Of a stretch of DNA of 64,000 nucleotides, positions 730 through 59,999 are shown piece by piece. The notes beneath the pieces are model-generated. The model worked only from the letters and a program-made list of their open reading frames with translations, was not told where the DNA came from and made no database searches. Every line of letters begins with the position of its first letter. The first letter of the stretch is position 1. The translations under genes and the position numbers were made by a program. Origin of the DNA: a virus; the IMG/VR virus record IMGVR_UViG_3300025132_000021, positions 64,001-128,000 of that record; one strand, given 5' to 3'.

Positions 730-1914
730 ATGGAGTCAGGTTCACCAATTACCAAAGCAGACCATGTTTGCCTCGGTCAGAAACTAACTTTTCCAGCGTA
801 TGGAGAAGATTCTTTAATTTCTAATGTCCTGTTTATCACAGGCAAGCGAGGTTCAGGTAAATCTTGGACAGCAGGTGTAATGATGGAAGAGTTTCATAGA
901 CTTGGATTACAATTTGTTTGTTTTGATGCTTTGAATGCTCACGGTGGCATTGATAGTCTGCCCAGAGTGGAATCATTGAAACCAGAAATCGGACAGTCTA
1001 TTGATATGAAATCTTTAGTAGACCGTTTGAAGACTACGGATAAAAGTTTAGTAATTGCTTTAGGAGGTTTGCCTCTGGTTAAGCAACAAGAACTTATCGG
1101 AGATTATTGCGAAGCCTTGATTGAGGCACGACTTGGTAAAGGCATACACACAGTTATTGAAGAATGTCAAGACTTTGTTCCTCAAATGGGCAGACCTATT
1201 TCTTTTGACCCAATCGTAAGACTCTGCAAACTTGGTCGTGCTTTAGGATATGGTGCGTCTTTGGTTTCCCAACGACCCGCAGGTGTGAACAAAGAAGCCC
1301 TTTCGCAAGCATCGGTATATTTAGTTCACAATGTCATTAACAACCGAGACTTGAAAACTTTGGACGAACAATTAAGTTTTGGAACAGACAAGCGATTGAT
1401 TAAGAAAATCTTGAATGGTATTGCTTCGGCTCGCAAAGGAGAGTGTGTTGCCTATGCCCCAGAGTTTTTCCGAGACCGAGGTTATCTGGTTATTGACAAA
1501 GTTCGTGGCGACCGTCAAGCCAAACACACAGGAAACAATGTAGATGTGCGAAGCACTTTGGGTGGAGTTAGCCATAGCGAAGATGAAGAAACAGAACCTT
1601 TTGAAGCCGTAACTTCAGCAGCAGAGTTAATGCCCTTTGCTCGTCAAAGTTCCTCAATAACACCTGCACCAACCCTCGCTAACGAAACATCGCCTTCGGC
1701 TCTCCCGCCGCTTTCCCAAGAGTTTAGAGGTATGGCTAAAGAATATGATGTTTGGGAGCCAAGTGTTGATGATTATGCAACCGAGTATGATACTGAACCA
1801 TTAGTAGAAAAGAAAGAATCTAAAAATACCAAGTGGATTCCTGTTGCTGCTGTGGGAGGAGTTAGCCTTACCGCAGGATTGTTAATGGTTGTTTTACAAG
1901 GTTTTAAGCGATAG
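730..1914 (+). CDS. HerA/FtsK-superfamily P-loop ATPase with C-terminal TM anchor; candidate genome-packaging ATPase
   Basis: Walker A GKRGSGKS, Walker B HTVIEECQ, KLGR arginine finger and SQRPA motif; hydrophobic C-tail ending GFKR. Confidence 0.75.
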   Translation: MESGSPITKADHVCLGQKLTFPAYGEDSLISNVLFITGKRGSGKSWTAGVMMEEFHRLGLQFVCFDALNAHGGIDSLPRVESLKPEIGQSIDMKSLVDRLKTTDKSLVIALGGLPLVKQQELIGDYCEALIEARLGKGIHTVIEECQDFVPQMGRPISFDPIVRLCKLGRALGYGASLVSQRPAGVNKEALSQASVYLVHNVINNRDLKTLDEQLSFGTDKRLIKKILNGIASARKGECVAYAPEFFRDRGYLVIDKVRGDRQAKHTGNNVDVRSTLGGVSHSEDEETEPFEAVTSAAELMPFARQSSSITPAPTLANETSPSALPPLSQEFRGMAKEYDVWEPSVDDYATEYDTEPLVEKKESKNTKWIPVAAVGGVSLTAGLLMVVLQGFKR

Positions 1915-3229: not shown

Positions 3230-3266
3230 GGCAATCTTTAAGTAGTAAAAGGAATAAGGTGATTAT

Positions 3267-10162: not shown

Positions 10163-11833
10163 ATGAGTAAGAAAATGTTATATGTCCGTTCTAAGGATTA
10201 TTGGGGCTATGATGCTTCAGATTTTGATGCAACTATGAACTTTTACAAATATACTTGGGTTGTTCCTGAAGCCATGTATAACGACATGGACGATAGCAAC
10301 AAATCCCGTTTGTATCCTTGTGCTTTGTTTTATGTTCAAGGAGTTACTGATAATCATAATTTCTTAACTATCAGTGTAAATGTTGATGGCTCAAATGCTA
10401 CTGTTAAGGGTATGCAAGGCACAAAGCGTAGAACTCGTAAGTTTGAAGTTGGCGTTCCTTTTGCTTATACTGTTGGTAGTTTAACTATGAAAGAAGCACC
10501 AGCAGGTGCAACTTCAGTAGACTTTATTCAAGAAGAAGTTAAAGAAGGGCGAGCCACTACTGAAGGAAGTTTCATTATTGATGGTTTCCTAACTGAAGCC
10601 ACAGATATTGCTGAAGTTGTGGGACTAAGTTCTACTGCTGAAGCCGAAACCGTAATGGAGCCTGCTGATATGGCTTCACCTATGGAAGATGAACCAACTC
10701 CAAGTGGTTATGAACCCACATCTTATGAAGCCGAAATTGATGATTCAGTCGCAGTTTCCGATTTCTACCCTCAAGAATCTGCTCAAACCCACGATGTTGC
10801 TTCTGGACATGGTGTTCCAGTGGCTTACGGTTCTGGGTCTTCCCAGAATCTTGAACCTCCAGTTGTTGTAGATGATGAATACATGGCGGCTGAAGATTTT
10901 GAAGCAGAAGTTTCAGATTTCTACCCACAATCCTCTGCTGAAGTTGGCGATACTCAATCAGGACATGGAGTTCCAGTTGCTTATGGCTCTGGCTCATCAC
11001 AATATGTAGAGCCACCAGTTATGGTAGACGAAGAAATGGCTGCTGAATATGACGATTCCGTAGAAGTTTCTGATTTCTACCCGCAGGAATCTGCCCAAAC
11101 TCACGATGTTGCCTCTGGTCATGGCGTGCCAGTTGCTTACGGCTCTGGTTCATCTCAAAACCTTGAACCACCAGTTGTAGTAGATGAAGAAATGGCTGCT
11201 GAATACCAAAAAGGTCGTCGTGGTGCTGGTGGAAGATTCCGAAGCAAGCGTGCTATTCGCAACGAAGTGTTCGGAGAAACAGTTGCTAATCAAATGGCAG
11301 GTTATTGGAGAACAGGTGTCGTTGGCACAAACCCAGTCGTAGGTTCAGATGTTGCTCGTAGTAATCCTGACAAGCGATACAATTATTTTACTCAACCAGC
11401 AGTTCGTAATGAAAACACAGGAATGTATAACAAAGGACCTAACTTCCGTCAAGCACACAAGATTGCTAAGGGAGTTGCATGGGACAGAGTAGAACGCCTT
11501 GGACTCGCTGCTGAAGCAGAAGTTCTTATGGCTGAATCCAAGTTTGAAACTTTGGCTTCTAAGATTGCCAAGCAATACGAGAAGAAAGGTATGGAACCGG
11601 GCAAGGCTATGGATATTGGCCGACGCACCGCTTACAAAGTTGGAGTTTCTAAGTATGGTAAATCAGGTATGACTCGCAAATCAATTGCAGGTCGCAAGGC
11701 TGCTGAATCTTACTCCGCAGACCGATTCGTAGATTCACTTAATGAAGCCGCCCCAGCACGCCTACCTATTAAGGGCATGGCTGCTGCTATTGTTGGCACA
11801 CTTCTTGGTGTCGGCTACGCTATGAAGAAGTGA
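10163..11833 (+). CDS. membrane-anchored polyprotein-like protein: globular N-domain, three acidic repeats, basic modules, C-terminal TM
   Basis: YEAE, MAAE x3, FEAE, KAAE and YSAD motifs separate the modules; ends TM-MKK. Confidence 0.75.
   Translation: MSKKMLYVRSKDYWGYDASDFDATMNFYKYTWVVPEAMYNDMDDSNKSRLYPCALFYVQGVTDNHNFLTISVNVDGSNATVKGMQGTKRRTRKFEVGVPFAYTVGSLTMKEAPAGATSVDFIQEEVKEGRATTEGSFIIDGFLTEATDIAEVVGLSSTAEAETVMEPADMASPMEDEPTPSGYEPTSYEAEIDDSVAVSDFYPQESAQTHDVASGHGVPVAYGSGSSQNLEPPVVVDDEYMAAEDFEAEVSDFYPQSSAEVGDTQSGHGVPVAYGSGSSQYVEPPVMVDEEMAAEYDDSVEVSDFYPQESAQTHDVASGHGVPVAYGSGSSQNLEPPVVVDEEMAAEYQKGRRGAGGRFRSKRAIRNEVFGETVANQMAGYWRTGVVGTNPVVGSDVARSNPDKRYNYFTQPAVRNENTGMYNKGPNFRQAHKIAKGVAWDRVERLGLAAEAEVLMAESKFETLASKIAKQYEKKGMEPGKAMDIGRRTAYKVGVSKYGKSGMTRKSIAGRKAAESYSADRFVDSLNEAAPARLPIKGMAAAIVGTLLGVGYAMKK
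10736..11203 (+). repeat. three tandem 46-53 aa repeats VSDFYPQ..SGHGVPVAYGSGSSQ..EPPV..MAAE
   Basis: Seen directly in the translation; copies differ mostly at synonymous sites. Confidence 0.9.
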
Positions 11834-14322: not shown

Positions 14323-15345
14323 ATGAACGCAATAACGAATGTCGCTCAAGAATCCTATGATGGATTGATGGATTCAAGTTTCTATTCAGGTGTCGCTGGT
14401 ATTGCTGTCGGCGGTATCCTTGGTAGTGTTGTCACTCTACTTCCTTTTTACAAATTAGGAATGTTTGGTAATATCACTCGCACAGTAGCCACAATGGGTT
14501 CAGGTGCATACCTTGTTATGAAGTCTAACCAAGTAACTGGTGATATGCAATCTCTTTATCGTGGTGCAGGTGCAGTTCTCGGATTCATCGGCGCATCACA
14601 AGTTGTCGGTTATCTAACTGCAACCACAGGACTTTCCATCCCCGGATTCAACGGACTTGGTTCAGTTCTAACAGGAAGTTTTGCTTCTGAAGGAGAAGAA
14701 GTTATTGCCCAGCGTGGAGATGGCCGAGTTCTCGGACAAGAAACTGCTACTCAATCTTATTCTGACATTTACAATGCTGACACTTTTGAAGAAGGCACTG
14801 TTGAAATGCAAAACCGTGTTTCACCAGATGACCCAATCAACTCGGTTGTAGAAGAAGCCCCTCTCGGTCATGGAGTCACTCAATGGTTCGGTGCAGACGG
14901 TGTTTCCGCAACTGGCGGTGTTGCTCAAAGTTTTGGAGGAGTTGCTGAATCTTCTACTATGAATCATTCTCCTCAAACAAATGTTTCTCAATATGTTTCC
15001 TCTGTGGATTCATTGGGAACTCGTGCTATGAATCTTAACAAAGGTTCAGCACTTGTTCAGTCGGCTTATGGTAAGGGCTACGAACCTCCTGTCCACTACT
15101 CGGCTGAAGAACCAACAGTAAGTGTTGGACAACCAACTCCTACCCCAATGGCGGGTTCAATGCCTGACTTGTGGAGTGCTTACTCCAAGCCCGGAACTAC
15201 CGCCGAAGAAAGCATCATGGACACCGTTAGGATTATGGCTCCCGGTCAGCCTATTCAGTGGTATGGTGCAGAAACCAGTGCAACTGGTATGATTTCCAAC
15301 CATGTGTCTTCAGCAGAAGGCTTTGGCAGTGTGGTAGGACAATAA
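14323..15345 (+). CDS. membrane protein (N-terminal TMs) with a peptide-motif tail
   Basis: P-I at 14294 (29 nt); FASE, YNAD, WFGAD, YSAE, WYGAE. Confidence 0.7.
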   Translation: MNAITNVAQESYDGLMDSSFYSGVAGIAVGGILGSVVTLLPFYKLGMFGNITRTVATMGSGAYLVMKSNQVTGDMQSLYRGAGAVLGFIGASQVVGYLTATTGLSIPGFNGLGSVLTGSFASEGEEVIAQRGDGRVLGQETATQSYSDIYNADTFEEGTVEMQNRVSPDDPINSVVEEAPLGHGVTQWFGADGVSATGGVAQSFGGVAESSTMNHSPQTNVSQYVSSVDSLGTRAMNLNKGSALVQSAYGKGYEPPVHYSAEEPTVSVGQPTPTPMAGSMPDLWSAYSKPGTTAEESIMDTVRIMAPGQPIQWYGAETSATGMISNHVSSAEGFGSVVGQ

Positions 15346-46221: not shown

Positions 46222-46235
46222 ATCACTGGCTTAAA
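46222..46235 (-). promoter_or_regulatory. Class II-like promoter TTTAAGCCAGTGAT upstream of DP2
   Basis: 45 nt from the ATG, same spacing as the MCM motif; contains the upstream stop codon. Confidence 0.45.
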
Positions 46236-48939
46236 CTTGTCCGTCCATGAAAGAATATGGGCTACGGTCGTTAATAGAAACAACTTTTAGTTCACCATTC
46301 CAAACTAAAGTAGAACCATTTTCTAACTTGCGAGAAGGAATTGGTGCTAACGCCAAATCAGGGAAAGACCCTGAATCTTTAGGGAAACCTTTCTCTACAT
46401 TAAAACTTTCAATTTGCATCTCTGAACCATCTGGGAAAATCAGATAAATAAAATCTTCAGAATAAGTGTTGCCTAAATCTACGGCCACTACCATATCTTC
46501 GGATTTCCAATCCTCCATTCCTACATCATCAGCAGCCATTTCTATCCAGTTTAACAAATACTCGGCTAATTGAAAACTAATGTTTTCTAATCCATCGTTA
46601 TTCTTTTCTTCAAAAGAAAGAATTGGTTGTCTAAGCATAGTAATATCGCCATCATTATATCCTAAATAACTAAAACTAAATTGACGAGGTGAGCGAGCAT
46701 TAGCATCTCTAATAAAACCAAAGTTTTTACTACGATAGATACGGGCTAAGTTTCGGTGAAATACTAAGTTTTCATCTGACATCCAGAGCCAAAACAAATC
46801 AGCATCACTACTTACTGAACTTTCAGCCCCTTTTGCTAATGCCTTGTAGCAAGCACACTTTGGTTCAATTGCCGAGCAACTCATTGGCTCAGGTGCTTTC
46901 ATGCAAACACAAGGATTGGATTTAGTAGCACCACAGCAACACGAAGTTTTGCTAAGTTTTTCTTCAGCATCACGACGGCGTTTGAGCGACGGTGTTCCGT
47001 CCAGAGGAGTCCAGTTCACAGGTTCTCCAAACTCCATTGGTCTTTGAATAGGTGCAGAACCTTCTTCAGATGCAAAAGGATTTAATTTTTTAGCAGCAGT
47101 TTGAGCCTTATCTTTAATTTTTTGAGTTGCTGGCATCTGTTCTACGGTAGACCTTACTCCACCATATTTGCGGTTGCACCACTCTTCTTGTCTTTCTCTT
47201 TCCTCTACCAATGCCGACTCATCTTTAGTATTCGCAAAGACAGATGCTTTAATTGCATTCCCGAACTCTTGATAAAATGCTGCTTTTTCATTATGTGTCA
47301 GACCTGAGATTTCGGGGGCAACATCTTCTACCAACATATTAACAATCATTGAGCAATTTATGTTCTTTTGAGGAGTTGAATACAGGGTGTAGTTATCATC
47401 ACCAGCCCGACAATAAATACCCATAGCCCTCGCAATAGGCCATGCCAATCTTTTAATTGCGCCTGATGGAATCTCAAACCGTTGCTTAACATAATCTTTA
47501 CCTTCTTTCTTATCCACCATTGTTGCTTGTTTAGTAAAACTACTAACCATTTCTGCAACACCCATCACTGAAGGTTCACTTGTTGCACTGGCGGTTGGAA
47601 TCTTTGACATAGGTTCTCCACGAGCCAAGGCCGCTACCACATCTAATGGAGATTGCACCACACCAGTTCCACTGACAGTAGGACCAGTAGTGCCTGTTTC
47701 TAATTGGGCTAACTCTTCCATCATAATTGATGACAAATCTCTGTAAAACTTCTGACTTTTATTTCCATAAGGCGGTGCAGCCACGACATAACCATCTTTG
47801 GCTAATCTTTTTAATCCACCAATTAAAGCGGCTCGTAATGGTTCAGTTCTTGATTTTGCCCCATCAACTTCTCCCTTAACATAATCTGCTTGAAAACTTT
47901 GTTCAGCACGCATTTCTGGAGGCTTATAGGTGCGACCCAACAAATCATAGATTTCTTCTTCAGTTGCCCCGCCGAGATACTCGTTGGTATCACGGTCAAA
48001 CAATCCGTATTCATTAAGTTTCAAACCTTTGCGCTTGGCTGCCGAGCGCATACCAATGTTATATCCAGAAGGTCCTGTAAAATAAAGTAAGGCTGCGCCG
48101 ATACCAGTAGGTGTGCTAACTTTAATATCTACTTTAACACCATCAATAACTAATTGAGTTTTCTTTTCACCCAACCAATTATATTTCTCATAGTTTCCTT
48201 CTAAGTCGGCTACTATTTCTGGCAAAGTAATACCTTCTTTAAGAATAACTACTACATCAAGGTCGCCCGGGTCTTCCCGACCACGACGATAACTTCCACA
48301 AACTTCTACAAAGTCTGCATAAGGTTCTAACATATCTGAAACTTTATTGGCTAAGAGTTCTGCTTCTGCACGAGTCATACGCTCTGATTCATCTCGGTCT
48401 TCTGCCCCAAACTTTTCAACTAATTGTTTCATAATTTCTTCTTCACTAATCAATCCTAATCTAACCATAGATTCCAACTGCAACAAAGTTTCTTGCATCT
48501 GGGCTTCTTCAATCATCTTTTGATACATCACAGCACGCTCGGCGTAACCTTTTGGAACTTTACCTCTGACCACGGCATTAAAAGTTTCAATTTCGTCCAC
48601 ATCAACTTCTTCCATAACATACAAAATACGATAAGCAGGTTCGTCGTCTAAACTTTCTTCTTGGAGAATGTAGGAAACTTGGTCTTCCGCTTCGCCACGA
48701 ACACCAATGAAAACTTTGTAAGGTAAATCTGCTTTAGTAGACACGGCTTCTAAACTCACGAACTCATCAGCAGGCAAAAGTTCTTGAACACGATATTCCG
48801 CATCAAAGTCCATTAGATATTTAGAATTACGAAACATTTGTTGAGCAAATTGATAAGGCACTAAAACATACCTTTGATTATCTCTGGGGTCAGAAACAAT
48901 AGTTCCCATAGGAGATACAGAAACAAAATTAAGTTGCAT
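46231..48939 (-). CDS. polX: polyprotein-like protein containing a minimal family X DNA polymerase (aa ~181-346)
   Basis: CGSYRRG..GDLDVVV, KVDI, LLYFTG, GLKLNEYGL, EEEIYDLLG..PPEMR; bracketed by FGAE and MRAE; P-I at 48969. Confidence 0.85.
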   Translation of the reverse strand: MQLNFVSVSPMGTIVSDPRDNQRYVLVPYQFAQQMFRNSKYLMDFDAEYRVQELLPADEFVSLEAVSTKADLPYKVFIGVRGEAEDQVSYILQEESLDDEPAYRILYVMEEVDVDEIETFNAVVRGKVPKGYAERAVMYQKMIEEAQMQETLLQLESMVRLGLISEEEIMKQLVEKFGAEDRDESERMTRAEAELLANKVSDMLEPYADFVEVCGSYRRGREDPGDLDVVVILKEGITLPEIVADLEGNYEKYNWLGEKKTQLVIDGVKVDIKVSTPTGIGAALLYFTGPSGYNIGMRSAAKRKGLKLNEYGLFDRDTNEYLGGATEEEIYDLLGRTYKPPEMRAEQSFQADYVKGEVDGAKSRTEPLRAALIGGLKRLAKDGYVVAAPPYGNKSQKFYRDLSSIMMEELAQLETGTTGPTVSGTGVVQSPLDVVAALARGEPMSKIPTASATSEPSVMGVAEMVSSFTKQATMVDKKEGKDYVKQRFEIPSGAIKRLAWPIARAMGIYCRAGDDNYTLYSTPQKNINCSMIVNMLVEDVAPEISGLTHNEKAAFYQEFGNAIKASVFANTKDESALVEERERQEEWCNRKYGGVRSTVEQMPATQKIKDKAQTAAKKLNPFASEEGSAPIQRPMEFGEPVNWTPLDGTPSLKRRRDAEEKLSKTSCCCGATKSNPCVCMKAPEPMSCSAIEPKCACYKALAKGAESSVSSDADLFWLWMSDENLVFHRNLARIYRSKNFGFIRDANARSPRQFSFSYLGYNDGDITMLRQPILSFEEKNNDGLENISFQLAEYLLNWIEMAADDVGMEDWKSEDMVVAVDLGNTYSEDFIYLIFPDGSEMQIESFNVEKGFPKDSGSFPDLALAPIPSRKLENGSTLVWNGELKVVSINDRSPYSFMDGQV

Positions 48940-48965
48940 ATAACTAAGTTATACTCAACCGATAC

Positions 48966-50351
48966 TTAAAGATATGGATAAGGAGTAGCACTCCAAACCT
49001 CTATGGTTTCCGCACCATATTCTCCAGACATCAATTCATAACCAACAAACTTCCAGATTTCAGCCCATGAGCCTCCGCAGGAATTACACCTTACTTCTTG
49101 TAAGCCGTTTTCTAAAGAACCCTCGTAGCCAATATCGTCTGCACCACACCAAGGACAGTGCATCAATTCTGCCATTTCCATGAAAGTTTCAGCATTCATA
49201 GCCTTGTCTATCTCCCAATCTCCATCATTATTCTCTTCATCAAGATAATTACGGGATACTCCAAGTTCATACACAGGTTCTTTATCCATGACACAAAGTT
49301 CATTTTCTTGCCAGAAAAAACTGATGTTATAGGCAATTGTAGAAGCCCAATCTACGGCTTCCCACGGAATCCAAGCAGTTAATACGATACGGTCAAAATC
49401 TTTTCCTTCTTCGCCTTTCATGTGGTCTATACCCTCATGTCCGAACAATGCCCCTGCGTAAAACTTACTCTGCCACAACCAAGAAGTAATCTTATCTCCA
49501 TAAACTCCATATTGGTCTTGCTTTCTATTTTCCCAATTGCCTAATGAATCTACATTAACTGGTGTGCCTACGGGAACATAAAGAACTCTCCATGCTTGCA
49601 TCATTATTCCATGGTCGTCATCAGAATACATCCAAGTTCCCTTTTCAAATCTTTCAAGCCAAATATCAAACATCCTCTCAAAGTATTCATCTTTAGTGGT
49701 ATCTTCGCCAAGTTCCGAACCATCAGGCAAGTCAAACCCTTCCTCATAAGCCCCCAATCCTCCTCCAGCCATATTATGTTCTGCCCAATGTTTAATATCT
49801 TCTTGAGCAGGTGAATACCAAATCCGTTTTATTTCATTTATGATATAATCTGTGCAAGCAAAGTTTTCTTCACTTGATTCTGCATCCAATCTACGGGTCT
49901 CATTGTTTTTGGGAAATAAACTGCTGCCCCAAAACTTTTTGCCAGTGCGCTTGGCCTTACGAACTACCATTGGAGTTCCTGTGCTATCACGAGGCACACG
50001 GTTTAGATAACCAGACTTGACTAAGTTCTCTAACTCATAAACACGGTTTAACAAATTGCGTCGCCAGTTTTCTACTCGGTGAACTCTGGTCGTTCCAGCA
50101 ACTTTCACTCCATCTACCCAGTATTGCACTCGGATAGCATCACGACCTTTCGCCCGACTGGTCTGCCCAGTCACGCTGGAATAAACTCGGATTTCGCCCT
50201 CACCCAAAGGACGGGTGAACACTCTTTCTTTGACAACTCGGATTGCCCCACTGGGATATTTACTGGACCGTTCTTCTATGGAAAGTTCCCTAAAACTCAA
50301 GGCTTCCATAAAATCTTGCATTTGAGCCACGCTAATATCAACATAACTCAT
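48966..50351 (-). CDS. multi-domain protein: basic N-domain, degenerate topoisomerase Zn ribbon, ADP-ribosyltransferase-like domain, Zn ribbon
   Basis: P-I at 50380 (29 nt); LDAE, MNAE, YGAE boundaries; R..S..ExE arrangement. Confidence 0.6.
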   Translation of the reverse strand: MSYVDISVAQMQDFMEALSFRELSIEERSSKYPSGAIRVVKERVFTRPLGEGEIRVYSSVTGQTSRAKGRDAIRVQYWVDGVKVAGTTRVHRVENWRRNLLNRVYELENLVKSGYLNRVPRDSTGTPMVVRKAKRTGKKFWGSSLFPKNNETRRLDAESSEENFACTDYIINEIKRIWYSPAQEDIKHWAEHNMAGGGLGAYEEGFDLPDGSELGEDTTKDEYFERMFDIWLERFEKGTWMYSDDDHGIMMQAWRVLYVPVGTPVNVDSLGNWENRKQDQYGVYGDKITSWLWQSKFYAGALFGHEGIDHMKGEEGKDFDRIVLTAWIPWEAVDWASTIAYNISFFWQENELCVMDKEPVYELGVSRNYLDEENNDGDWEIDKAMNAETFMEMAELMHCPWCGADDIGYEGSLENGLQEVRCNSCGGSWAEIWKFVGYELMSGEYGAETIEVWSATPYPYL

Positions 50352-55320: not shown

Positions 55321-56216
55321 CAATAACTCACCATTAGGGCATCTCCATCTACTTCTACATAGAAAATATCCCAACGGTCAATTGCTTTACCTAAACTTTT
55401 TGATTTGGCAGTTTCTACATGAACAGAAGTTGTATCTGAATAAGTAATAGTAATACCTGATTCTTTGAACCATTCTGTCAAAGCAGAAATTGTAGACATC
55501 ATACGGTCGCCCAAAAGTTTTACCTCTTCACAGACCATCCAACCCTTTGGAGGAGTTTCCATCATGGCTTCTTCACCAGTTTTGATATTGACGCAAAGTT
55601 TTTCACGACCTGTGAACATTCCGCCTCTAACTGTTTGTTTAGTTTTATCCGCCATAGCAGTATAACCACTATATTCTACTTCAGCGATTTCTCCAGAGAG
55701 CGAATTATCATTGATTGCTAAGTTTTGTTCCATAACTACATCAGGTGGTAAAAACATTTTGAGGTTTTCTTTTCTCATAAACAAACACCAATGTCCTTTC
55801 GCAGCGATTATCATTGGCGCAGCCATAGCCGCAGGAACAAGGTCTTTTGAAGAAATAATCACAAAGTTTTCAGGGTCAGGATTCTGCACCCAATCTACGA
55901 TATTAACTTCATAACCAATACCCAGATAAGGTGGTGCATAACCATTCATAATTTGTCCTAAAACATAATCCGTCATTTTTCCATTGTGTTCTGGATTTTC
56001 AAACAGAGTCATCTGTCCATTAAAATTGATAATCTCGGTAGCCTCTCCTAATTGACGCTCATATTCTTGTTCACTCATAGATTCAAGTTGGTCTTGTTTA
56101 TCCATTTGTTCGTCCCAACCCTTGTCGTAATCCTCTTTATCACTATCGGGTAGTCCTGATTCAGTAAATGCTTGTTCTTTTGCATCTTTGTAAGGTTTAA
56201 CCATTCCACGACTCAT
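55320..56216 (-). CDS. hypothetical protein
   Basis: TAATG coupling and GGAGG SD support the start at 56216. Confidence 0.7.
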   Translation of the reverse strand: MSRGMVKPYKDAKEQAFTESGLPDSDKEDYDKGWDEQMDKQDQLESMSEQEYERQLGEATEIINFNGQMTLFENPEHNGKMTDYVLGQIMNGYAPPYLGIGYEVNIVDWVQNPDPENFVIISSKDLVPAAMAAPMIIAAKGHWCLFMRKENLKMFLPPDVVMEQNLAINDNSLSGEIAEVEYSGYTAMADKTKQTVRGGMFTGREKLCVNIKTGEEAMMETPPKGWMVCEEVKLLGDRMMSTISALTEWFKESGITITYSDTTSVHVETAKSKSLGKAIDRWDIFYVEVDGDALMVSY

Positions 56217-58348
56217 TATACCATGCCTCCTCTGGCATTTAGCCAATCACGGGCTTCATCTTCTTCTTCAAAGATTATATCTTCTCCATAAGTAGTTGCT
56301 ACCCACGAGTTTGTATCCGTATTCCAAATGCCCCATTGATTTTCAGATTGTGTTTCTGCACGCTGTAATTGTTCTTGCATTTGAGTGTTTTCATCTAATG
56401 CTTTTTGCACATCAGGGTCAGAACCGTCCATTTCATTAAGTGCTTGTGCCGTATCTTCTAAGGCTTCTTTCATCGCCTCACGGTCTTCGGGATTATACGG
56501 ATTCATAGCATCCATCGCTTCTTTGGATTTATCATGCGCTTCTAACGCTTTTTCTTGAGCATTTTCTAATTCATCAGGACTACTGGCATCTTGCGAGTCG
56601 TTAATACTTTCTTTAGCCTTTTCTGATGCTTCTTTCGCTTTGTTTTGACATTCGGCTCTATCCTCTTGTCGGTCTTTAACTTCTTCGTGCGCTTCTTGTA
56701 GCATATCACGAAGTTTGTCTGCGGTTTCTTCATCTATTTCATCGGCTTGTTCAGCGTAATCAATTGCCCATTCTGCATCTTCAATGGCTTGCATAGCCGA
56801 ATCGTCTGCATCAGCCATGTTTTTCTGGTCTTGAGTATTACGCTCATCACCTTTTTCGTTAGCACGGTCGGCGGCTTCTTTAGAAGCCATAGCCTGTTCA
56901 ATAGCCTCCATCATAGCATCAGCACTATTGTCATCTCTTTTTTCGGCTTCATCTTTGGCTTCTGATGCGGCCTCTTGATGTGCCTTTGCTTCTTGAGCAG
57001 CCATACCCGATGGGCTGGTATCTTGCCCCGGTTTCATATCATCTACTGCATCTTTGAGAGCATCTGCCTTGGTTTTTTGAGCATCGGCTTGCTCTTGAGT
57101 CATATCACCTTGTTCTACGGCTTTATCTGCGGCTTCTTTGGCTGCGTCCAAAGCATCTTTAGCATCTTGCTTGGCTTGTTCGGCCATATCTACTTCATCA
57201 GGTTTATCAGGATTACAGTTTCCGCAACATTCTCTTGCCCCATCAACTGCTTCTTTAGCGGCTTGCGCTGCTTGTTCAAAGTCCGAAGGCATTTCTCCAC
57301 CGCCAGATGGGTCGCCATCTTCAGAGGGTTCTCCACCTTCTCCAGTTCCCGATGGTTCGCCTTCACCTTCTCCTGAACCTTCTCCTTCACCGCCTTCGCC
57401 TTCGCCTTCGCCGCCCTCTCCAGAACCTTCTCCCCCTTCGCCACCTTCACTTCCGCTTCCAGAACCTTCGCCACTACCTTCTCCGCCTTCTCCGCCTCCG
57501 CTTCCACTGCTTTCGCCTGAACCCGAACCGCTTCCTTCAGAACCATCACTTTCGCCGCCGCCTTTGCCTGCTGCTTTTTCTGCATCGGCTTTACCTTGCG
57601 CTGCTCTTTCTGCACCTTGTTGCATACCTTGTTGGCGTTGGGCTTCAGATTGAGCCTGTGATTTTTGAGCATCAGATTGACCTTTAGATTCTGCGGAACT
57701 TTCTCCACTTCCAGAGCCACTACCTTCTCCTCCACTCATACCATTGATTCCTTCTCCTTCGCCACCTTCTCCATCTAAAAATGGGTCTGGTCCGGGGAAT
57801 GGTGGTGGTTGTTCGGGAGATGGTCCCGGTGATGGTCCCGGTGATGGACCCGGTGCTGGCCCGGGTCTTGCTGGTCCTCTTTGTGGCCCGGGTGTCGGTG
57901 TTCCTCTTTGTCCTCCTCCTCCGCCCGGTGGTGCTTCATCATAAACGAAATCATCATCTGTGGCATCGGACATCCCGACCCATTGAGATTTTTCAGGCCA
58001 TGTGGTTCTCTCTACATAAGTAAATACTAAAGCATCTCCGAAACCAGACATTTCAATACACCAAAATTGAGTTAGTGCATCAGCGATTACATCTATGTCA
58101 GAGGGATTTACTACAAAACCTTCTACCCGATATACTGCATCATTGGCAGGATTGCGAATCAGTTTAACTTCTTCTAACGAAGTATTGGCACGCAACCATT
58201 CTGCGAAACTGACCAGTGTGCTACGAAAAATAGAACCTTTAACTATTACCCATTTTACAGGCAACCAACCCTCATTGGCTTGATAGAGGTTTTCATCACC
58301 TTCTATTATCTCACCAGAGCCTACATTAACCCATTGAACCGTTGCCAT
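56216..58348 (-). CDS. large low-complexity protein (PG-rich, GE/GS-rich, acidic helical)
   Basis: TTAAATA box at 58378; PGPS repeats, GEGEG tract, A/D/E/K helical region. Confidence 0.75.
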   Translation of the reverse strand: MATVQWVNVGSGEIIEGDENLYQANEGWLPVKWVIVKGSIFRSTLVSFAEWLRANTSLEEVKLIRNPANDAVYRVEGFVVNPSDIDVIADALTQFWCIEMSGFGDALVFTYVERTTWPEKSQWVGMSDATDDDFVYDEAPPGGGGGQRGTPTPGPQRGPARPGPAPGPSPGPSPGPSPEQPPPFPGPDPFLDGEGGEGEGINGMSGGEGSGSGSGESSAESKGQSDAQKSQAQSEAQRQQGMQQGAERAAQGKADAEKAAGKGGGESDGSEGSGSGSGESSGSGGGEGGEGSGEGSGSGSEGGEGGEGSGEGGEGEGEGGEGEGSGEGEGEPSGTGEGGEPSEDGDPSGGGEMPSDFEQAAQAAKEAVDGARECCGNCNPDKPDEVDMAEQAKQDAKDALDAAKEAADKAVEQGDMTQEQADAQKTKADALKDAVDDMKPGQDTSPSGMAAQEAKAHQEAASEAKDEAEKRDDNSADAMMEAIEQAMASKEAADRANEKGDERNTQDQKNMADADDSAMQAIEDAEWAIDYAEQADEIDEETADKLRDMLQEAHEEVKDRQEDRAECQNKAKEASEKAKESINDSQDASSPDELENAQEKALEAHDKSKEAMDAMNPYNPEDREAMKEALEDTAQALNEMDGSDPDVQKALDENTQMQEQLQRAETQSENQWGIWNTDTNSWVATTYGEDIIFEEEDEARDWLNARGGMV

Positions 58349-58371
58349 CACTATACCGTATGCGTAGCAAC

Positions 58372-58424: not shown

Positions 58425-59180
58425 ATGGTTGCCAATGTTGCCATTCAAATCTCTGCGTGGTGGGGTGAGATTGATGATGACTCCACAGCCTTTACTTCAT
58501 TTTCTGGTCAAAGAATTATGTTGGCTCAAAACTTTGATATTAAGAAATTGATGACTATGACTAATCAACAAGCCTTAAAACATTTTGTAGTTAATGTAGA
58601 TATGAGAGGGCCTCAACAGATTTATGCTGATAAAGAGGGTTATGCAAAAGCCATAGACGGAGTTCGTAATAAACCCATCAAAAGTCTTAGTTATAGTCCC
58701 AGTTCAATCACTGATGGAAATAATGATTGGCTCTGGATTGATTTATACCCAGTAGAGTTCTTGGCTCACGAGGACACCGAATCAGAGTTTGCGATGTTTA
58801 ACGAATCACTTGGGGATGATGAGAGCCTAAATTACTTTAACTTTTGCTATAATCTAAAAGAATGGCTCACTGCATGGAATAGACAACTCCAGTTCACAGA
58901 GGGTTCAAAAAAAATAATCTCCAAACTATCAGCAGGCCGTATGCCTCTTTTTGAAAGTTTTAAGACAATACCTGATTATGTAGGACCTCCGGGAATAAAT
59001 GTAGATGAAACTTACACAAATCTCATAGATAATCCTGAATATCAAAGATTAAAAGATTTTGGCATTTATTTGATGTCTTCCGAAGCAGCCACAGATTTTA
59101 GAAGGCTTCTGGGTAATTTAACTAATTCTATTCTAAATTGGACACAAACTTCGGTTGATGACCTGCTAAACTTTAAGTAG
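58425..59180 (+). CDS. hypothetical protein
   Basis: 251-aa ORF; TAG stop inside the next promoter. Confidence 0.7.
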   Translation: MVANVAIQISAWWGEIDDDSTAFTSFSGQRIMLAQNFDIKKLMTMTNQQALKHFVVNVDMRGPQQIYADKEGYAKAIDGVRNKPIKSLSYSPSSITDGNNDWLWIDLYPVEFLAHEDTESEFAMFNESLGDDESLNYFNFCYNLKEWLTAWNRQLQFTEGSKKIISKLSAGRMPLFESFKTIPDYVGPPGINVDETYTNLIDNPEYQRLKDFGIYLMSSEAATDFRRLLGNLTNSILNWTQTSVDDLLNFK

Positions 59181-59201
59181 TCGTGCGACAGCATGGTAAC
59201 T

Positions 59202-59999
59202 ATGGAACCTTGGCGTAAGCACTTTGAAATGTTTTCAGCAGATGCTCTGGAGGACATGAAAACTTATTCTGACAATACTCACGAAGAAAGGGAATGGATG
59301 TGTTATGTCTACGAAAAGGATGGTCGTTATGAACTTGGCTCGCCGTCGCTTGGCACAGAATCTCGTATTGAGGTTAATCCAGTCGCTAAGGCAGCGCAAG
59401 ATGCTGGCAAAGGTTTGACTAATCGTATGTGGACTATCCACGGACACCCTCTAAAAGATGGTAAGATTTACACAGGTCGCCAATACTTTTCCTCTACGGA
59501 TATTATCAATGAGTTCCTAAAAACTCGTGATACCAACGAACCCGTAGTTCAATGGATTACTTATCCTCATCAACAATTAGATACTAATACTGGTAAGAAA
59601 GTTATTCACAACCGATGCCGAACTTTAGTGTTTCCATCTCGTGATGTAGTTATCAAGGCCATGCAAGTTAGCAATCCAGATGTAGATGTTATGGCAATTA
59701 CCAGAGAATCTGGACAAAACCGCAACGCTGCCGATGGTAGTTTAGTAAATGATTCAGGTATTGATTGGTTCGCTTTCCAAGAAGCACTGGGAGATATGGG
59801 CTACATGGGCATTATGGATTTAGAAGGACCAGCCGCAGGAGCCAAGCCTTTCCGTAGTGAATCTATGTTTGTGAAAAAGTTTGGAATGCTTTCTGTGATT
59901 GCACTCGGAATTGCAGGATTCGCATACTTGAGCAAAACTCAAGGATTTGGTGCAGAAGTTGAAGTCGTTGATGGCTTAGGCGAATGGCACGAAATCTGA
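59202..59999 (+). CDS. JAB/MPN-like Zn metalloprotease with C-terminal TM
   Basis: EREW..TIHGHP..FSSTD (E, HxH, SxxD); P-I at 59173 puts the start at ATG 59202. Confidence 0.65.
   Translation: MEPWRKHFEMFSADALEDMKTYSDNTHEEREWMCYVYEKDGRYELGSPSLGTESRIEVNPVAKAAQDAGKGLTNRMWTIHGHPLKDGKIYTGRQYFSSTDIINEFLKTRDTNEPVVQWITYPHQQLDTNTGKKVIHNRCRTLVFPSRDVVIKAMQVSNPDVDVMAITRESGQNRNAADGSLVNDSGIDWFAFQEALGDMGYMGIMDLEGPAAGAKPFRSESMFVKKFGMLSVIALGIAGFAYLSKTQGFGAEVEVVDGLGEWHEI

Follow-up and report, generated by a model that had tools for sequence, protein, structure and literature searches.

A stretch of 64,000 nucleotides (the window; bases 64001-128000 of IMG/VR virus record IMGVR_UViG_3300025132_000021) carries at positions 59202-59999 of its + strand a gene for a protein of the JAB/MPN superfamily. 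With moderate probability, the gene encodes a tail-anchored and predicted catalytically competent JAB/MPN+ (JAMM) zinc hydrolase, and it is a conserved single-copy gene of a lineage of large marine viruses that have linear double-stranded DNA and archaeal replication and transcription genes. The features on which this account draws are given below by position in the window; residues are numbered as in the sequence P0001, which is counted from 59193, and the number in the true protein is obtained by subtracting 3.

59172..59179, + strand: promoter (TATA-like) box TTTAAGTA, 30 nt before the ATG, which implies a leaderless transcript from about 59202.
59202..59999, + strand: coding sequence of the putative tail-anchored JAB/MPN protein, 265 amino acid residues and a TGA stop, delimited by the starts of the homologues.
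59202..59837, + strand: predicted JAB/MPN catalytic domain (P0001 residues 4-215), assigned by AlphaFold, Foldseek and VIA-align.
59292..59294, + strand: codon for E34 (Glu), putative general base in the JAMM motif, invariant in both alignments.
59439..59450, + strand: H83-G-H85-P86, with the two putative Zn-binding His at the end of a beta strand (model strand 78-84), invariant.
59451..59489, + strand: family-specific loop LKDGKIYTGRQYF, which lengthens the HxH-SxxD spacer to 14 residues and is near-invariant in the core family.
59490..59501, + strand: S100-S-T-D103, the SxxD element (Ser and putative Zn-binding Asp) at the N-terminus of a helix (101-114), S100 and D103 being invariant.
59850..59861, + strand: FRSE motif (220-223) in a flexible linker before the membrane helix, where the model confidence (pLDDT) is below 50.
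59880..59930, + strand: C-terminal transmembrane helix (approximately residues 230-246), the putative tail anchor, from model helix 223-249 and the homologues.
59931..59996, + strand: acidic tail of 22 residues with FGAE (252-255; 59946-59957) and a conserved aromatic C-terminus, from the comparison of homologues.

The fold was assigned with two AlphaFold models. The full-length protein, modeled from 25 sequences, gave a mean predicted local distance difference test score (pLDDT) of 78, and the domain alone (residues 4-215, 49 sequences) gave a pLDDT of 93.3 with a predicted template modeling score of 0.88. In a Foldseek search of PDB with the domain model, the top 50 matches were all MPN/JAB proteins, among them BRCC36, the MPN domain of Npl4, CSN5, Rpn11, Cap3, a Rpn11 homologue of Caldiarchaeum, and eIF3; the probabilities were mostly 0.9-1.0 and the E-values went down to 1.8e-4, and the full-length model behaved similarly. 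VIA-align, which is independent of Foldseek, placed P. furiosus JAMM1 first among 48,161 chains (Z 8.3, root-mean-square deviation 3.4 Å, 122/129 residues aligned), followed by DSY2949 (Z 8.3) and Cap3 (Z 8.1). Z values of 5 or more were confined to 33 chains, nearly all of them MPN proteins; RadC appeared among the structural matches at Z 4.6-5.0, and unrelated folds from approximately Z 4. A similar outcome was obtained with the full-length model. The alpha/beta fold of MPN proteins was found, accordingly, with two models and two aligners. A side feature of the family is a possible extra small domain in some members, P0122 (337 residues) and the homologue at G008:C1:23796-24584, where an insertion of approximately 50-70 residues follows the second beta strand, behind residue 43.

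The motif that defines JAMM enzymes is complete as E...HxH...SxxD, and consists of E34 (within HEEREW), H83-G-H85-P, and S100-S-T-D103. E34, H83, H85, S100, and D103 do not vary in either of two alignments (23 and 49 members), which include three relatives at 31-37% identity. In the model, a strand begins at the Glu, the next core strand ends at HxH, and SxxD is at the N-terminus of the helix that follows, and this is the placement of the three elements in JAMM enzymes generally. The Ser of SxxD in these enzymes stabilizes the intermediate of peptide hydrolysis. The spacing of the motif departs from the canonical HxH-x7-SxxD: 14 residues separate H85 from S100, and the same length was found in 141 of 143 full-length homologues, whereas archaeal Prok-JAB comparators from Methanosarcinales genomes have a spacer of 7 residues (HSHP-x-SxxD, HSHPSSVVRPSQAD). 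The middle residue of HxH is G here and M, L or A in distant members, but never S or T, and R96 in the loop LKDGKIYTGRQYF is invariant across all members. This conserved extra loop by the metal site probably sets a substrate specificity other than the Gly-Gly tails of ubiquitin-like proteins (Ubls). An earlier note on this DNA, made from the letters alone, had described a JAB/MPN metalloprotease with E..HGHP..SSTD and a longer than usual spacer; the predicted structures and the alignments bear out both the fold and the motif.

Among the solved relatives, archaeal JAMM1/Prok-JAB (PfJAMM1, PDB 5ld9) is the best match, and the JAMM1 of H. volcanii is another metalloprotease of this archaeal group. 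The protein described here shares with it the MPN fold and the arrangement of E...HxHP...SxxD on the same secondary-structure elements. By eye, the local sequences resemble each other as well: the context of E34, E-W-x4-Y-E-K-D-G, is close to E-F-x4-E-A-K-D-G of archaeal Prok-JAB (EWMCYVYEKDG against EFAGLLEAKDG; in general form, E-aromatic-x4-x-x-K-D-G), and SSTDIINEF to SQADLHMF (SxxD-[LI]-x-x-F). Unlike the archaeal enzymes, it has a 14- rather than 7-residue spacer, a C-terminal subdomain (residues 150-212) that amounts to approximately 70 extra residues, and a membrane anchor; it shows no similarity to them by hidden Markov model (HMM) or hhalign, and no Ubl partner of it was seen. Eukaryotic MPN+ deubiquitinases (Rpn11, CSN5, BRCC36, AMSH) are alike in fold and catalytic motif, at the Foldseek probabilities given above. 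They work in large complexes with an MPN- partner and bind Ubls through the inserts Ins-1 and Ins-2, whereas the insert here is within the HxH-SxxD segment and no partner is known.

The second defining property of the protein is its C-terminal membrane anchor, which the earlier note had also proposed. A hydrophobic segment is present within the last 80 residues in 143 of 143 homologues, with a tail of 12-40 residues behind it (mean net charge -1.8), and the protein sequence has no N-terminal hydrophobic leader or signal sequence. Since a signal peptide is lacking and the helix is C-terminal, the JAB domain is expected to be cytoplasmic and the FGAE tail to lie across the membrane. Three short motifs around these elements, FSAD, FRSE, and FGAE, had been pointed out as flanking the domain. 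All three exist, but they are kept to different degrees: FSAD at residues 14-17 is not conserved except for F14, while in 99% of the 143 homologues the 25-residue stretch ahead of the helix contains an [AS][ED] pair, and an [FYWLM]-x-[AS]-[ED] motif follows the helix in 88%. The three most distant members (P0131, P0133, and P0144) retain the JAB site and have short basic tails without the motifs. The suggestion that the enzyme processes itself fares badly at FGAE, because the membrane helix separates this motif of its own from the catalytic domain, so that the two are on opposite sides and self-processing there would be topologically awkward.

From these properties, a mode of action can be proposed. 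The protein would be inserted into the membrane post-translationally as a tail-anchored protein, and the virus has its own Get3/ArsA ATPase (Pfam, 3.5e-61). The JAB domain would then reside on the cytoplasmic face of the membrane, and would face the capsid if the virion has an internal membrane. Its proposed activity there is Zn-dependent peptide or isopeptide hydrolysis, by which a C-terminal tail or a conjugate would be removed from proteins close to the membrane; the closest solved relatives, archaeal JAMM1, Cap3, and Rpn11, have this chemistry. Approximately 14 ORFs (open reading frames) of the genome have a layout that looks tail-anchored. One of them, at window 730-1914 (+), is an FtsK/HerA-like P-loop ATPase with a C-terminal transmembrane helix. 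The label of terminase large subunit that PHROGs gives to this ORF was rejected, as it is a generic ATPase of the FtsK/HerA type and the profile matches 14 of 14 control genomes.

The ORF listing (table 11) gives a + strand frame of 268 codons at 59193-59999. The true start is the ATG at 59202, from which the earlier note had also counted, because every full-length homologue begins at the equivalent Met and because the box TTTAAGTA (59172-59179) lies exactly 30 nt 5' of it; the in-frame ATG at 59193 would precede the start of the transcript. The window has 27 copies of TTTAAGTA (for example at 3237, 12494, 26704, 36792, and 59172) against 3.35 expected, a count reached in 0 of 100 shuffles, and of its 64 copies in the genome, 40 have an ATG at exactly +30 and some others at 31. 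It is therefore a recurring promoter signal rather than a chance match, which agrees with the class I promoter that had been assigned to the gene. An archaeal TATA box is centered approximately 26-27 nt before the transcription start. The position of the box thus puts the transcription start at the ATG, and the mRNA would be leaderless. Judged from sequence, TTTAAGTA defines a leaderless promoter class of approximately 50 genes, which also covers many motif-rich, membrane-anchored genes of structural appearance. This promoter is not conserved at the JAB gene of the relatives, which have no TTTAAGTA box there and use starts led by Shine-Dalgarno sequences (GGTGA, GGAGG).

The genome that carries the gene is a linear virus of 160,342 bp with inverted terminal repeats, of which 99 bp are perfect. 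Pfam matches for its 164 ORFs of at least 90 residues include TBP, TFIIB/TFB, both subunits of PolD (DP1 and DP2), PCNA, ribonucleotide reductase, primase, ligase, and Get3/ArsA, and further an AAA ATPase, PP2C, repair enzymes including UvdE, and three C5 methylases; approximately three quarters of the ORFs have no annotation. The JAB gene stands between an acidic ORF of 711 residues and a DNA ligase gene, 13 kb from PolD DP2, among replication and repair genes. A single JAB copy, 10-18 kb from DP2, was found in 5 of 5 PolD-bearing contigs examined (123-166 kb, this genome included); the four relatives are contigs of 166, 123, and 150 kb and the 136-kb contig L018, and the relative position of the gene is the same in all four. 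The whole family comprises 324-327 clusters at 90% identity, and its 49 representatives at 50% all belong to the same family. A profile search of 5.8 billion proteins gave 327 clusters, against 324 with the single sequence, and no further relatives. No member has a Pfam label; marine metagenomes are the main source, with contigs as long as 175 kb. Searches of the literature turned up no description of a PolD-encoding group of large marine viruses of this kind. The JAB subfamily occurs only in this apparently undescribed group, marine viruses of 120-175 kb that have archaeal PolD, TBP, and TFB.

Several results weigh against the reading as a membrane-tethered zinc peptidase or isopeptidase. The sole Pfam match of the protein is DUF4329 (PF14220; residues 28-136, E 0.0068), at 16.8 bits against a cut-off of 28.6 bits, and this match was seen, weakly, in 7 of 25 members. 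The models JAB (PF01398) and Prok-JAB (PF14464) gave no match up to E 10 in the 25 members scanned. With hhalign, the family profile gave nothing against four archaeal Prok-JAB proteins from Methanosarcinales (probability 0.5%) and no signal against ORF24 of phage OP1, an example of Tox-JAB-2; the family-profile search and phmmer of PDB sequences returned chance matches only. Because the spacer is twice the canonical one, the active-site geometry rests on a predicted model. The nearest named family has been described as a proposed nuclease. The virus showed no partner of the Ubl, E1 or E2 kind, as far as ORFs of at least 90 residues were covered by HMM: neither ThiS/MoaD/ubiquitin nor ThiF is among the Pfam families listed (25 of 27 for one third of the ORFs), and no convincing small Ubl-like ORF is among those listed by a Gly-Gly ending. 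The host could supply the Ubl. The immediate neighbors of the gene are not conserved, and therefore give no hint of its function. Finally, the membrane orientation has been deduced indirectly, and the tails of the distant members are basic, not acidic.

In addition, the JAB protein fell into no PHROGs family, none of 50,697 phage records matched it in tblastn, and a six-frame search of the virus genome with PF14220 gave none. The protein is best classified, with the predicted structure as the guide, as a divergent new subfamily of the JAB/MPN+ superfamily and not as a member of DUF4329. Its relation to Tox-JAB-2 is distant at best; it is set apart because it has HGH in place of H[ST]H, lacks the architecture of a toxin, and ends in a C-terminal anchor.

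It is nevertheless possible, though we regard it as unlikely, that the protein is a hydrolase of the Tox-JAB-2/RadC type that acts on a non-protein substrate (nucleic acid, or another amide or ester bond) as a membrane-tethered effector. DUF4329 corresponds to Tox-JAB-2. The members of this JAB clade belong to polymorphic toxins and bear the signature E, H[ST]H, S, D, and the clade is also reported from large eukaryotic DNA viruses and from Xanthomonas phages (Zhang et al., 2012; PMC3482391). The toxin JAB domains lack the residues of the tunnel for the Ubl tail, and nuclease rather than peptidase activity has been proposed for them (PMC3482391). DUF4329 is the nearest named family not only by HMM but also by predicted structure, since it makes up 4 of 7 rows of the nearest ESM Atlas models beyond the own family (Prok-JAB and Toxin-JAB1 being among the others), and by language-model features, where it accounts for 17 of 30 named matches. 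BFVD returned phage MPN/JAB proteins, several phage proteins labeled 'minor capsid', EsV-1-200, ASFV F317L, and IIV-3 229L. The last three fit the published remark on Tox-JAB-2-like domains in large eukaryotic DNA viruses; the likeness to them is weak in template modeling score (approximately 0.3, with a probability of approximately 0.9). The presence of RadC among the structural matches points in the same direction. On the other hand, the nuclease activity of Tox-JAB and RadC is itself a prediction, the true isopeptidases PfJAMM1, Cap3, and Rpn11 outrank RadC, the Ser of SxxD is invariant, and a membrane tether would be odd for a nuclease. The residues E, HxH, S, and D are common to both groups and both occur in viruses, but the HxH element differs (HGH here, HMH, HLH or HAH in other members), and the protein stands alone with its C-terminal anchor, without an RHS region, a secretion signal or an adjacent immunity gene, whereas Tox-JAB-2 forms the C-terminal toxin tip of RHS or secreted proteins. 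The phage example, OP1 ORF24, is unlike the protein here in that its N-terminus is a hydrophobic leader, its spacer is short, and AxxD replaces SxxD.

An improbable alternative is that the enzyme resembles a de-SAMPylase or deubiquitinase and serves counter-defence; at the membrane it would remove host Ubl conjugates from proteins of the virus or of the host, while virions assemble or once it has been delivered with the virion. The earlier note had named a packaged de-SAMPylase or anti-defence enzyme among its options, and the fold is compatible with this: the best solved match is an archaeal JAMM1 deubiquitinase homologue, and Cap3 ranks third. Many archaea have SAMP, UbaA, and JAMM. As the machinery of the virus is of the archaeal type (TBP, TFB, and PolD), its host may plausibly be an archaeon that has a SAMP system; the viral DP2, however, is just 35-39% identical to cellular homologues, so that no host can be assigned from it. 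The option has no direct support: a Ubl, an E1 or a convincing Gly-Gly end was not seen among the viral ORFs covered, and in PADLOC 23 members gave no match to Cap3 or any other JAB protein of a defence system. The doubled spacer and the conserved loop further suggest a groove unlike that of Ubl-specific enzymes. Cap3 of type II CBASS (PDB 9ild) clips a C-terminal tail conjugate. Our protein shares with it the compact prokaryotic JAB fold, and differs in its membrane anchor, in the absence of a CBASS context, and in the lack of any sequence match.

The remaining alternative concerns a motif that recurs in the proteins of this virus. [FYW]-x-A-[ED] occurs 79 times genome-wide against 43 expected (z 6.7), and [FYW]-G-A-E 9 times against 1.7, while the control patterns [FYW]-x-A-[KR] and [FYW]-x-G-[ED] are not enriched. 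The excess is concentrated in genes led by TTTAAGTA, the promoter class to which the JAB gene itself belongs (40 against 14 expected, approximately 2.9-fold; other genes, 39 against 29), and the motif is dense in window 3267-32805 and 46231-50351 (-). In its typical form, an aromatic residue is fixed at -3, position -2 is free, and Ala stands at -1, and [ST]-F often comes after the motif; with its middle residue variable, the motif points to a recognition pattern of the -3/-1 kind. Two ORFs of the window show a modular, repetitive build. ORF 10163-11833 (+) contains three copies of a unit of approximately 55 residues (SGHGVPVAYGSGSS...EPPVVVDEEMAAE) and a C-terminal membrane helix, and ORF 14323-15345 (+) contains GHGV.QWFGAD / QPIQWYGAE repeat units after an N-terminal membrane region.

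The earlier note had favored the JAB protein as the enzyme that processes such sites. While the fold, the full JAMM site, the C-terminal anchor, and the TTTAAGTA promoter of its interpretation hold, the role in processing or maturation has gained no support. According to this idea, which we judge decidedly improbable, the protein is a morphogenetic processing protease that cuts the [FYW]-x-A-[ED] sites of late, membrane-anchored, modular viral proteins, and possibly its own FRSE linker, at the membrane of virion assembly. The enrichment of the motif is real, and its concentration in the promoter class of the JAB gene, the conservation of [AS][ED] before and of the motif after the helix of the homologues, and the retention of the gene in all five viruses are genuine but circumstantial links that would suit such a role. 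Furthermore, no other protease family was recognized in the genome by Pfam (among the matches listed for the 164 ORFs) or by PHROGs (110 ORFs), but with some three quarters of the ORFs unannotated this absence is weak evidence, and an unrecognized protease could easily exist. None of the results shows cleavage at the motif or ties the JAB domain to it. A -3/-1 pattern with a hydrophobic or aromatic residue at -3 and Ala at -1 is typical of serine proteases of the assemblin or signal-peptidase type, whereas characterized JAMM enzymes cut after small Gly-Gly tails that are threaded into a narrow groove. The own FGAE lies across the membrane from the catalytic domain, the three most distant members keep the site without the motifs, and on the contigs of distant JAB genes the motif is not clearly enriched (counts of 3, with 2.8 expected, and 4, with 1.4 expected, on short contigs that make this comparison underpowered). 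Nor is the gene part of a morphogenetic module: it lies among replication and repair genes and not beside capsid-like genes, and no capsid or portal family was recognized in the genome ORFs among the Pfam and PHROGs matches listed. Known capsid maturation proteases (HK97/assemblin S21-S78 and the adenain type) would be alike in the proposed role only; the motif of this genome resembles assemblin sites, but fold and catalytic type are unrelated. The boldest form of the idea, in which the JAB domain serves a new lineage of large archaeal viruses as their morphogenetic endopeptidase, cuts dozens of late, modular, membrane-anchored proteins at [FYW]-x-A-[ED] on the cytoplasmic (capsid-facing) membrane surface, and has had its specificity moved off Gly-Gly by the 14-residue loop, would make it the first JAMM-type virion maturation protease, and is very doubtful.

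The reading as a tail-anchored JAB/MPN+ zinc hydrolase of this virus lineage should be seen against what is known of the superfamily. JAB/MPN enzymes are central to Ubl signaling in the three domains of life and are emerging in conflicts between phages and bacteria (Cap3, Bil systems). Viral JAB/MPN proteins as such are already well known; what is new is a subfamily that lies outside every curated model, with a doubled motif spacer and a tail anchor, in an apparently undescribed group of PolD-encoding marine viruses. Its approximately 330 clusters make it a sizeable branch of JAB proteins that no curated family captures. At present, the annotation of this divergent enzyme is solid and makes it a reasonable target for experiments, but does not demonstrate a new mechanism. 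The identity of the substrate would tell whether the virus tampers with host Ubls, processes its own proteins or uses the fold for a different chemistry, and any of these answers would shed light on the unusual [FYW]-x-A-[ED] motif of its late proteins.

Some observations on related contigs and on neighboring genes may be added. L018 (PALK01000017.1), whose DP2 shows 58% identity and which carries the JAB gene, is binned in a MAG (metagenome-assembled genome) of a 'Rickettsiales bacterium', and the JAB homologue P0114 is labeled 'Candidatus Thorarchaeota archaeon'; related virus contigs appear to have been mis-binned into cellular MAGs. DP2 was considered as an indicator of the host and set aside as uninformative, its cellular homologues at 35-39% identity being those of Methanosarcinales and Hadarchaeales. 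A conserved operon partner was likewise sought among the adjacent genes and rejected: the upstream ORF of 251 residues and the downstream ligase are absent beside the homologue in another contig, L001, and the distant loci share no other gene. The acidic neighbor of 711 residues ends in ...ARGGMV and was considered as a Ubl partner, but this ending is absent from its homologue in a related virus. This protein (window 56216-58351, -) is extremely acidic and of low complexity, with Gly/Ser/Glu- and Pro-rich runs, and its gene is divergent from the JAB block and causes a strong local anomaly in AT- and GC-skew.

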